Shown: in pieces, positions 29,744-37,204 of the stretch
Layout of the letters: each line of letters starts with the position of its first letter
Position numbering within the stretch: the stretch's first letter is position 1
From: Eledone cirrhosa
Taxonomy: Eukaryota
DNA: 64,000 bases
Reading direction: 5' to 3'
Assembly (NCBI GenBank): GCA_964016885.1
Contig: OZ024742.1
Coordinates: 202,430,001 to 202,494,000, forward strand
The notes under the pieces: generated by a model
What the model saw: the letters and a program-made list of their open reading frames with translations, nothing else
What the model was told of the DNA's origin: nothing
Database searches by the model: none
Position numbers and translations under genes: made by a program

Positions 29744-29749
<6 letters not shown>

Positions 29750-29963
29750 ATAAATGCTCTGAAATAGCGATATATATGTGAATATAGACATAGAATATTC
29801 GAAAATATTCTGTATGTTTATAATAAACATTTTGAAGACCTAATCGCTATAGAATAGAATACGTCACGTATTACAATTAGATTCTCGATAAAAGCAAGGG
29901 AAGTAATCTACGCGTTTCATTCTTGTTAGAAATCTTCAGGACTACATATCCAGTGCTTTTATC
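29744..29963 (-). repeat. Inverted partial copy of the 310-bp unit with a minus-strand HHR (29903-29945)
   Basis: Reverse complement of part of the array unit, joined to the forward array at a shared ATC. Confidence 0.9.
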
Positions 29964-32900: not shown

Positions 32901-35900
32901 TGCCGGACCGGCAACCGCTCTTTCAAAACAGTTCCTGTACGCAGCTAAGTATTCTATAAGTCTCTAGCTGTGTCATTCTCGATAAAAGCACTGGATATGT
33001 AGTCCTGAAGATTTCTAACAAGAATGAAACGCGTAGATTACTTCCCTTGCTTTTATCGAGAATCTAATTGTAATACGTGACGTATTCTATTCTATAGCGA
33101 TTAGGTCTTCAAAATGTTTATTATAAACATACAGAATATTTTCGAATATTCTATGTCTATATTCACATATATATCGCTATTTCAGAGCATTTATTCCAAT
33201 TTCTAATTTCTGCCGGACCGGCAACCGCTCTTTCAAACCAGTTCCTGTACGCAGCTAAGTATTCTATAAGTCTCTAGCTGTGTCATTCTCGATAAAAGCA
33301 CTGGATATGTAGTCCTGAAGATTTCTAACAAGAATGAAACGCGTAGATTACTTCCCTTGCTTTTATCGAGAATCTAATTGTAATACGTGACGTATTCTAT
33401 TCTATAGCGATTAGGTCTTCAAAATGTTTATTATAAACATACAGAATATTTTCGAATATTCTATGTCTATATTCACATATATATCGCTATTTCAGAGCAT
33501 TTATTCCAATTTCTAATTTCTGCCGGACCGGCAACCGCTCTTTCAAACCAGTTCCTGTACACAGCTAAGTATTCTATAAGTCTCTAGCTGTGTCATTCTC
33601 GATAAAAGCACTGGATATGTAGTCCTGAAGATTTATAACAAGAATGAAACGCGTAGATTACTTCCCTTGCTTTTATCGAGAATCTAATTGTAATACGTGA
33701 CGTATTCTATTCTATAGCGATTAGGTCTTCAAAATGTTTATTATAAACATACAGAATATTTTCGAATATTCTATGTCTATATTCACATATATATCGCTAT
33801 TTCAGAGCATTTATTCCAATTTCTAATTTCTGCCGGACCGGCAACCGCTCTTTCAAACCAGTTCCTGTACACAGCTAAGTATTCTATAAGTCTCTAGCTG
33901 TGTCATTCTCGATAAAAGCACTGGATATGTAGTCCTGAAGATTTCTAACAAGAATGAAACGCGTAGATTACTTCCCTTGCTTTTATCGAGAATCTAATTG
34001 TAATACGTGACGTATTCTATTCTATAGCGATTAGGTCTTCAAAATGTTTATTATTAACATACAGAATATTTTCGAATATTCTATGTCTATATTCACATAT
34101 ATATCGCTATTTCAGAGCATTTATTCCAATTTCTAATTTCTGCCGGACCGGCAACCGCTCTTTCAAACCAGTTCCTGTACACAGCTAAGTATTCTATAAG
34201 TCTCTAGCTGTGTCATTCTCGATAAAAGCACTGGATATGTAGTCCTGAAGATTTCTAACAAGAATGAAACGCGTAGATTACTTCCCTTGCTTTTATCGAG
34301 AATCTAATTGTAATACGTGACGTATTCTATTCTATAGCGATTAGGTCTTCAAAATGTTTATTATAAACATACAGAATATTTTCGAATATTCTATGTCTAT
34401 ATTCACATATATATCGCTATTTCAGAGCATTTATTCCAATTTCTAATTTCTGCCGGACCGGCAACCGCTCTTTCAAACCAGTTCCTGTACACAGCTAAGT
34501 ATTCTATAAGTCTCTAGCTGTGTCATTCTCGATAAAAGCACTGGATATGTAGTCCTGAAGATTTCTAACAAGAATGAAACGCGTAGATTACTTCCCTTGC
34601 TTTTATCGAGAATCTAATTGTAATACGTGACGTATTCTATTCTATAGCGATTAGGTCTTCAAAATGTTTATTATAAACATACAGAATATTTTCGAATATT
34701 CTATGTCTATATTCACATATATATCGCTATTTCAGAGCATTTATTCCAATTTCTAATTTCTGCCGGACCGGCAACCGCTCTTTCAAACCAGTTCCTGTAC
34801 ACAGCTAAGTATTCTATAAGTCTCTAGCTGTGTCATTCTCGATAAAAGCACTGGATATGTAGTCCTGAAGATTTCTAACAAGAATGAAACGCGTAGATTA
34901 CTTCCCTTGCTTTTATCGAGAATCTAATTGTAATACGTGACGTATTCTATTCTATAGCGATTAGGTCTTCAAAATGTTTATTATAAACATACAGAATATT
35001 TTCGAATATTCTATGTCTATATTCACATATATATCGCTATTTCAGAGCATTTATTCCAATTTCTAATTTCTGCCGGACCGGCAACCGCTCTTTCAAACCA
35101 GTTCCTGTACACAGCTAAGTATTCTATAAGTCTCTAGCTGTGTCATTCTCGATAAAAGCACTGGATATGTAGTCCTGAAGATTTCTAACAAGAATGAAAC
35201 GCGTAGATTACTTCCCTTGCTTTTATCGAGAATCTAATTGTAATACGTGACGTATTCTATTCTATAGCGATTAGGTCTTCAAAATGTTTATTATAAACAT
35301 ACAGAATATTTTCGAATATTCTATGTCTATATTCACATATATATCGCTATTTTAGAGCATTTATTCCAATTTCTAATTTCTGCCGGACCGGCAACCGCTC
35401 TTTCAAACCAGTTCCTGTACACAGCTAAGTATTCTATAAGTCTCTAGCTGTGTCATTCTCGATAAAAGCACTGGATATGTAGTCCTGAAGATTTCTAACA
35501 AGAATGAAACGCGTAGATTACTTCCCTTGCTTTTATCGAGAATCTAATTGTAATACGTGACGTATTCTATTCTATAGCGATTAGGTCTTCAAAATGTTTA
35601 TTATAAACATACAGAATATTTTCGAATATTCTATGTCTATATTCACATATATATCGCTATTTCAGAGCATTTATTCCAATTTCTAATTTCTGCCGGACCG
35701 GCAACCGCTCTTTCAAACCAGTTCCTGTACACAGCTAAGTATTCTATAAGTCTCTAGCTGTGTCATTCTCGATAAAAGCACTGGATATGTAGTCCTGAAG
35801 ATTTCTAACAAGAATGAAACGCGTAGATTACTTCCCTTGCTTTTATCGAGAATCTAATTGTAATACGTGACGTATTCTATTCTATAGCGATTAGGTCTTC

Positions 35901-37204
35901 AAAATGTTTATTATAAACATACAGAATATTTTCGAATATTCTATGTCTATATTCACATATATATCGCTATTTCAGAGCATTTATTCCAATTTCTAATTTC
36001 TGCCGGACCGGCAACCGCTCTTTCAAACCAGTTCCTGTACGCAGCTAAGTATTCTATAAGTCTCTAGCTGTGTCATTCTCGATAAAAGCACTGGATATGT
36101 AGTCCTGAAGATTTCTAACAAGAATGAAACGCGTAGATTACTTCCCTTGCTTTTATCGAGAATCTAATTGTAATACGTGACGTATTCTATTCTATAGCGA
36201 TTAGGTCTTCAAAATGTTTATTATAAACATACAGAATATTTTCGAATATTCTATGTCTATATTCACATATATATCGCTATTTCAGAGCATTTATTCCAAT
36301 TTCTAATTTCTGCCGGACCGGCAACCGCTCTTTCAAAACAGTTCCTGTACGCAGCTAAGTATTCTATAAGTCTCTAGCTGTGTCATTCTCGATAAAAGCA
36401 CTGGATATGTAGTCCTGAAGATTTCTAACAAGAATGAAACGCGTAGATTACTTCCCTTGCTTTTATCGAGAATCTAATTGTAATACGTGACGTATTCTAT
36501 TCTATAGCGATTAGGTCTTCAAAATGTTTATTATAAACATACAGAATATTTTCGAATATTCTATGTCTATATTCACATATATATCGCTATTTCAGAGCAT
36601 TTATTCCAATTTCTAATTTCTGCCGGACCGGCAACCGCTCTTTCAAACCAGTTCCTGTACACAGCTAAGTATTCTATAAGTCTCTAGCTGTGTCATTCTC
36701 GATAAAAGCACTGGATATGTAGTCCTGAAGATTTCTAACAAGAATGAAACGCGTAGATTACTTCCCTTGCTTTTATCGAGAATCTAATTGTAATACGTGA
36801 CGTATTCTATTCTATAGCGATTAGGTCTTCAAAATGTTTATTATAAACATACAGAATATTTTCGAATATTCTATGTCTATATTCACATATATATCGCTAT
36901 TTCAGAGCATTTATTCCAATTTCTAATTTCTGCCGGACCGGCAACCGCTCTTTCAAACCAGTTCCTGTACACAGCTAAGTATTCTATAAGTCTCTAGCTG
37001 TGTCATTCTCGATAAAAGCACTGGATATGTAGTCCTGAAGATTTCTAACAAGAATGAAACGCGTAGATTACTTCCCTTGCTTTTATCGAGAATCTAATTG
37101 TAATACGTGACGTATTCTATTCTATAGCGATTAGGTCTTCAAAATGTTTATTATAAACATACAGAATATTTTCGAATATTCTATGTCTATATTCACATAT
37201 ATAT
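29961..37204 (+). repeat. Tandem array of a 310-bp hammerhead-containing unit, ~23.4 copies (retrozyme-like satellite)
   Basis: ctggatatgt recurs every 310 bp (30511, 30821 ... 37021); units almost identical; no ORF; (TA)n at both outer ends. Confidence 0.97.
30495..30583 (+). ncRNA. Type I hammerhead ribozyme of the array unit (representative of 23 plus-strand copies)
   Basis: gtagtc-CTGAAGA-t-ttct(aaca)agaa-t-GAAAC-gc-GTA|gattac; stem I continues through an internal loop into a perfect 16-bp helix attctcgataaaagca/tgcttttatcgagaat; predicted cut after 30555. Confidence 0.9.

Follow-up and report, generated by a model that had tools for sequence, protein, structure and literature searches.

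A hammerhead ribozyme repeat at positions 29744–37204 of a 64,000-nt window of the Eledone cirrhosa genome (an animal genome of 3.0 Gb; assembly GCA_964016885.1, contig OZ024742.1) was found to be a two-armed insertion, in which a tandem array of 310-bp units, itself an atypical mosaic, forms the long arm. Insertions of this family are young and non-coding, and they were probably made by the reverse transcriptase (RT) and endonuclease of a Penelope-like element (PLE) acting in trans, which would have copied one 310-nt monomer, likely circular, repeatedly, starting on both sides of a cut (AT)n tract. Judged from its sequence, the element works like a non-long terminal repeat (non-LTR) retrozyme mobilised as a non-autonomous PLE and has the testable features of one. 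The class is already known; the value of the family lies in genomic evidence of unusual clarity for the mechanism that has been hypothesised.

The insertion in the window

The long arm (29961–37204, plus strand) consists of 23.4 head-to-tail copies of the unit, with a period of 310 and 99% matches, and runs from unit position 27 to an outer end at site A (position 139); unit position 1 is the base after the cleavage site, and all unit positions are counted in this way. It carries 23 plus-strand hammerheads at exact 310-bp spacing, with N17 at 30245, 30555 ... 37065, and 11 of its 22 full units are identical, there being 7 distinct sequences. These results bear out the initial annotation, which had described about 23 near-identical 310-bp units with the same N17 positions and no open reading frame: no stop-free frame of the unit exceeds 59 amino acids (aa), and the RT plus GIY-YIG frame of an autonomous PLE is absent. 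That annotation had treated the whole of 29744–37204 as tandem array, but the array begins at 29961, and 29744–29963 (minus strand) is an inverted arm of 220 bp that had gone undescribed. This short arm runs from unit position 256 to an outer end at site B (position 165) and holds a 24th hammerhead, on the minus strand, with a predicted cleavage position of 29909.

The arms are joined head-to-head through 3 shared bases (29961–29963), with their inner ends in the two strands of a 16-bp helix of the unit, and the insertion sits in an (AT)n tract that remains on both flanks, as (AT)33 on the left (29680–29745) and as (AT)n on the right (37197–37218, in part shared with site A). The host sequence is an older insertion of a sister hammerhead repeat with a ~420–540-bp unit (28830–37700; hammerhead at 37405, minus strand), which the young insertion split at an internal AT tract. 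The length of the insertion is high without being unique, as 2 of 71 insertions reach 7.46 kb or more.

A dispersed family with two paired end sites

The genome-wide search proposed in the initial annotation recovered the unit at 99–100% identity on at least 6 chromosomes (39 of 187 candidates scored). Exact patterns found 5,357 hammerhead copies, representing two of the haplotypes (control 0), and end patterns adjoining AT repeats found 1,024 site-B and 1,232 site-A ends (controls 0), giving at least 1,232 insertions, most of them 1–5 kb long (median 2.4 kb). Single-unit variants (singletons) occur at a rate of 5e-4 per base, and the insertions appear to be very recent. The term satellite used in the initial annotation is thus misleading: a classical satellite has few large loci with arbitrary ends, whereas here there are more than 1,000 loci with fixed ends. 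As in non-LTR retrozymes, the family consists of tandem non-coding units within the 150–450-bp range, each with one type I hammerhead.

The arms end at either of two fixed sites inside the unit, which lie 26 nt apart, and each insertion uses both of them once. End ranges were ~130–139 for site A and 164–172 for site B, and three overlapping sets of loci were scored. Among 35 loci chosen by identity, 29 were two-armed and 6 single-armed, and an A end was accompanied by a B end in 26/26 two-armed loci with both ends visible. Facing end pairs taken by position alone on C1 1–218 Mb were A-B or B-A in 53/53 cases, with 47 A and 26 B ends left unpaired by the strict patterns. A B-anchored set, comprising 80 of the first 100 B ends (10 were already covered and the final 10 omitted), contained 74 simple two-armed loci, 1 complex locus and 5 that were single-armed or cut at the retrieved edge, and the opposite end was A in 71/71 two-armed loci with both ends seen. 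In one unit of the window the two sites lie within 30375–30417 (plus strand; site A at ~positions 130–139, site B at 165–172). Site A is an AU-repeat that matches the target, and the stretch between the sites corresponds to a PLE-type tail; we take the two fixed end sites, one of each per insertion, to be the PLE 'tail' signature.

Unit position 131 was T in 37 of 62 terminal A ends, compared to 27 of 740 internal copies (the template has C131), and therefore the AT repeats of the target would have paired with the RNA and served as primer. Target-site duplications were seldom readable: 11 of 125 loci were flagged, several of these being artefacts of AT runs, and two duplications, of 14 and 16 bp, were clear. 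An exponential distribution describes the arm lengths (p 0.11 and 0.24; means 1.2 and 1.7 kb). Only 5 of 148 inner ends lay within 3 nt of the cleavage site, compared to 3.3 expected, and units were spaced exactly across that site almost always, the exceptions being two one-base losses in one array. Among 74 junctions between arms, 47 had no inserted bases and showed a mean overlap of 2.3 nt (0.77 by chance), and 27 carried inserts, many of which are recognisable as copies of unit sequence. L1-type twin priming on a linear RNA was considered and rejected: it predicts inner ends of the B arm near site A, and these were found spread over the unit.

One haplotype per insertion

The marker haplotypes of the two arms agreed in 59 of 61 loci, compared to a chance level of 0.16. 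At least three units were present in 112 of 126 insertions, and 96 of these 112, with 30 haplotypes among them, lacked any recurrent unfixed variant. Variants confined to a single sampled locus were fixed over 17–24 units (a 2-base deletion in L100b; 88T in L167). Genome-wide, 216G was found in 30 units, of which 18 were every covering unit of one insertion, 7 were in the window and 5 were single; therefore, there is no parent array for that insertion in this assembly. When the arms were compared in register over 64,814 positions, 96 differences were private and shared ones occurred in 2 loci only, which argues against a linear multimer as the usual template, unless most singletons post-date insertion. 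Taken together, the haplotypes, the private fixed variants and the lack of an excess of inner ends at the cleavage site point to rolling-circle reverse transcription of one monomeric RNA from both DNA ends.

The window belongs to the minority of mosaic arrays, with 216G in 7 of 23 units and 203A in 4 of 23, neither of them periodic. Mosaics were commoner in long arrays (8 of 26 with at least 14 units, compared to 8 of 86 shorter ones), and the window arm may have changed after insertion. Periodic multimer circles were rejected as their source (L050, L055, L038 and the window) because no pattern was strictly periodic. In L136 the haplotype switched in one arm only; this switch and that of L161, described below, may serve as timers of the two RT reactions.

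A minimal hammerhead

The first plus-strand hammerhead of the array (30209–30251, recurring every 310 bp) has a 6-bp stem I (30209–14/30246–51), core nucleotides at 30215–21 and in GAAA at 30236–39, N17 at A30245, a stem II at 30222–35 with a U·U base, 4 bp and a 4-nt loop, and a palindromic stem III (30239–44). The core CUGANGA...GAAA...UH and stems I–III are all present, so the initial annotation of a complete type I hammerhead is right as to the core; the form is minimal, with a stem III of 2 bp and a 2-nt loop within a 6-nt palindrome and U·U at 10.1–11.1, rather than the canonical monomer-active form with a stable stem III and G10.1–C11.1. The motif thus fits a minimal, dimer-acting hammerhead, and cleavage every 310 nt would depend on folding as double hammerheads, since a monomer cannot form stem III. 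The palindrome is predicted to give a dimer duplex of -9.5 kcal/mol. As that annotation also stated, stem I extends to a perfect 16-bp helix (second copy 30495–30583, plus strand, pairing 30495–30510 with 30568–30583), which would hold the monomer ends together. The predicted monomer fold (z = -4.7; circular monomer z -4.6) brings both ends together. Minimal motifs of this kind are described as dimer-acting and weak in vitro, with a U3-A8 variant also reported (PMC4209133), and of the 9 retrozyme dimers assayed in vitro in a later study, only 1 was cleaved (10.64898/2026.07.22.740005).

A covariance-model search, which the initial annotation had suggested as a check, gave no hammerhead in Rfam at the gathering score or at E ≤ 10. 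We attribute this to model limits, because pattern and covariation tests were positive: the core pattern, which the sister repeat shares, had 19,801 genomic matches compared to 0 for the reversed control, and in an 8-sequence alignment with an older ~320-bp relative 16 of 30 pairs were altered on both sides, a level reached in 0 of 500 shuffles and far above slid controls, with the caveat that only three or four lineages are represented and the structure was taken from the first row. Covariation covers stems I and II and a change of C3-G8 to U3-A8, and indicates selection. The genome is very rich in minimal hammerheads.

This older relative (39 scored of 2,392 candidate places) is 70–78% identical where aligned, combines a U3-A8 core with a 16-bp helix of different sequence, and uses the same A and B end sites, 26 nt apart (L223–L242, L170, L109).

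Penelope-like elements as candidate helpers

PLEs have inverted truncated partner copies, a 30–40-bp tail at one end and (TA)n targets (PMC8557442, PMC3846280), and the 310-bp family shows the corresponding features of a non-autonomous PLE, namely an inverted 5'-truncated partner copy, a tail at one end and AT-microsatellite targets. The retrozyme class and PLE mobilisation proposed in the initial annotation are therefore supported by the two-site ends, the inverted arm and the (AT)n targets. In vitro, PLE protein uses two internal RT start sites, extends both target strands and is predicted to be a dimer (PMC11167929).

The genome contains PLE families with intact frames of 719 and 713 aa. 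The 719-aa PLE has the Hydra-clade motifs RWK, DKT and CxCX5C, and its own two end types each occurred once in 3/3 two-armed loci. The helper PLE is a matter of inference, because none of three sampled Hydra-like families has terminal-repeat homology to the unit; the one similarity, a 20-nt match (E 0.014), is located away from the ends of that PLE.

As separate observations, the 719-aa PLE (L109, L111, L118) ends +33–39 or +100–111 after its hammerhead, giving a tail of ~75 nt compared to the usual 30–40, and a few short words in it occur in the same order as in the A-B region of the retrozyme, which is not significant. Broken copies of Hydra-like PLEs (RT + GIY-YIG), from at least 3 families, lie in the window at 6510–8591 (+), 19002–20069 (+), 51031–53147 (-) and 15129–15386 (+); two of these families have the intact relatives of 719 and 713 aa, and each search returned more than 31,000 candidate places.

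A>G changes

Among array-wide changes at 70 loci, at least 11 of 31 events were A>G on the RNA strand, compared to 9 of 122 single-unit substitutions (p 2e-4). Array-wide A>G struck 6 of 30 firmly paired A compared to 2 of 63 other A (p 0.013) and, as a wobble control, 0 of 23 paired C changed (p 0.03). One change, 276A>G, lies in a UAG triplet of stem I and was found in 846 units, the first 100 listed representing 14 loci and five lineages. ADAR favours UAG in helices. Recurrent A>G in RNA helices is consistent with A-to-I editing that has been written into DNA. The recurrence might also stem from recombination between closely spaced markers or from a hot spot of transcription errors, and site 211, which is not A>G, also recurs on two lineages. 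Editing is not favoured as the cause of the 216G mosaic of the window, where 216G co-occurs with C>A and all four combinations are found in one array.

Proposed mechanism and alternatives

We suggest that tandem transcripts would be cleaved as double hammerheads and the monomers ligated into circles, and that a PLE protein, probably a dimer, would then bind one circle and cut both strands of an (AT)n tract. The pattern of ends suggests that one DNA end starts at site A, where the AT repeats of the target overwrite the template, and the other at site B, 26 nt downstream. From the haplotypes, synthesis from both ends would circle the same monomer repeatedly, with strand displacement, and stop at random, and the junctions suggest that the two cDNA ends were then joined head-to-head by microhomology or short templated inserts. 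In the window, the long arm likely gained its mosaic afterwards by local rearrangement or template switching. A stricter version, in which each insertion is the fossil of a PLE RT dimer that primed both cut ends at obligately paired sites on one covalent RNA circle, as two rolling circles, with A-to-I edits thereby fixed in all units, is put forward tentatively, as somewhat less than an even prospect.

Several observations weigh against copying of one circular monomer by a PLE. No RNA data set was among the sequencing runs listed as containing the unit; the family is known here from DNA alone, so that RNA, cleavage and circle are predicted features. Mosaics make up 16 of 112 insertions, window included, and one monomer circle cannot give these; in L161 the haplotype switch falls at the same register in the two arms, and in L144 the arms have one variant in common in register, both of which fit a multimeric template. 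Taken together, the mosaics and L161 mean that some templates are multimeric, that template is switched, or that arrays are rearranged later. The distribution of inner ends is uneven, with fewer at positions 156–279. The terminal repeat of the 719-aa family has no significant match to the 310-bp unit, and no PLE-adjacent homolog of the unit was found among the loci examined. PLE insertion in vitro also proceeds without ribozyme cleavage and is primed without homology (PMC11167929).

A first alternative is a PLE-type insertion in which the hammerhead is a minor player and the template is a linear transcript that reads through an existing array and is left uncleaved. It would account directly for the window mosaic and for the in-register sharing in L161 and L144, and it agrees with the weakness of minimal hammerheads and the dispensability of cleavage noted above. 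We nevertheless regard it as unlikely, since singletons of the source array should recur in register, yet 96 differences were private and sharing was confined to 2 loci; private variants fixed over 17–24 units need a one-monomer bottleneck; and the covariation, including C3-G8 to U3-A8, indicates selection on the hammerhead. A cleaved but unligated monomer, its ends held by stem I and the 16-bp helix so that the RT jumps the nick at each pass and sometimes reaches another monomer, would predict the same one-haplotype arrays and would account for the occasional switches of L136 and L161, and the modelled fold does place the ends together. It is nonetheless improbable, given that terminations show no surplus at the cleavage site (5/148) and unit spacing across that site is nearly always exact.

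A further alternative is conventional growth of a satellite at the DNA level, by unequal crossing-over or reinsertion of circular DNA, or a copy number inflated by assembly. The excess of mosaics in long arrays makes some local growth or mis-assembly of the window arm plausible. As an explanation of the insertion this alternative is very improbable, because it leaves the fixed A and B ends, the (AT)n targeting, the inverted arms and the strand-specific excess of A>G without account, and similar lengths occur elsewhere. An independently assembled contig set, X1, which may come from the same sample, likewise shows tandem joints and has AT loose ends at site A. Copying of one likely circular monomer from both DNA ends remains the reading that we consider probable.

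Relation to known systems

Metazoan non-LTR retrozymes (newt and axolotl satellite 2, coral, mussel), as defined by Cervera and de la Pena (2020, PMC7229834), who proposed circles as templates of PLE RT, have the same 150–450-bp non-coding unit, low GC and self-paired monomer, and axolotl HHR_Amex2 likewise has a U·U stem II base and is more active as a dimer. Retrozyme RNAs were demonstrated in that study, whereas those of the 310-bp family are predicted. The 310-bp insertions differ in being two-armed and head-to-head, with paired fixed ends in (AT)n; the words 'inverted', 'head-to-head' and 'microsatellite' are absent from the main text of that paper.

Endonuclease-positive (EN+) PLEs, notably the Hydra clade (Craig et al. 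2021, PMC8557442; Arkhipova et al. 2013, PMC3846280), share the inverted truncated partner, the tail at one end and the (TA)n targets, and have a hammerhead in their terminal repeat as the 310-bp unit has one. Unlike them, the present element is 310 nt long without an open reading frame and both its arms are multimers of one unit; its tail is 26 nt (31–33 for ends at 170–172) compared to 30–40 bp, and no homologous coding partner was found in the three Hydra-like families sampled. The anole Poseidon PAc in vitro (Frangieh et al. 2024, PMC11167929) likewise has two adjacent internal RT start sites that define the tail. There the start site is the same for both strands and no homology is needed, whereas here an A end always goes with a B end, and the target pairs with site A.

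Li et al. (2026, bioRxiv 10.64898/2026.07.22.740005) tie retrozymes to PLE terminal repeats and treat vertebrate retrozymes as non-autonomous PLE derivatives, the same proposed relation of parasite and helper. They favour local amplification by unequal crossover after insertion, whereas most arrays here look as if born as multimers; tails, haplotypes and RNA editing are not discussed in the main text of that preprint. In the literature covered, mostly open-access and with supplements aside, paired A/B ends, array-wide haplotypes and editing in retrozyme insertions were not found. The proposal that PLE enzymes reverse-transcribe retrozyme circles in rolling-circle fashion dates from 2014 and 2020 (PMC4209133, PMC7229834), a 2026 preprint still treats the question as unresolved (10.64898/2026.07.22.740005), and the origin of PLE tails and inverted copies is called open in PMC8557442. 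More than 1,000 very young, haplotype-marked insertions offer direct, countable tests of rolling-circle reverse transcription and of PLE tail formation and inversion, and the family names two priming sites and defines what reconstitution would need, a minimal 310-nt substrate and an (AT)n target. It would also archive RNA editing in DNA, if editing is the source of the A>G signal. If each insertion does derive from two rolling circles on one RNA, the family would be a genome-scale record of rolling-circle retrotransposition; it would also explain how PLEs acquire tails and inverted copies, and show a path by which RNA edits reach germline DNA.

Other features

Runs X3, X4 and X6, which bear other organism labels, each contain one 340-nt circular contig with a 310-nt period at a depth of 10–26; these contigs were not used for circularity or horizontal transfer, because tandem DNA looks alike and trace carry-over is likely. 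The larger sister family (e.g. L073–L087) has a ~420–540-bp unit with an internal AT tract and a minus-then-plus two-armed layout, and has the U·U base of stem II and the 4-nt loop in common with the 310-bp unit, and little else. A decayed fragment of the older ~320-bp relative lies in AT repeats at 23928–24006 of the window. Other hammerhead-like motifs in the window, at 10149(-), 11439(-), 14491/14572, 20608/20687, 26130(-), 37405(-) and 38733(+), belong to different families, including head-to-head pairs with a U3-A8 core. Broken frames of long interspersed element (LINE)-type RT and endonuclease are present at 39292–42029, 46752–49021 and 55577–63822, and a weak tRNA match (29.2 bits) at 18763–18834 (-) is possibly the head of a short interspersed element (SINE).

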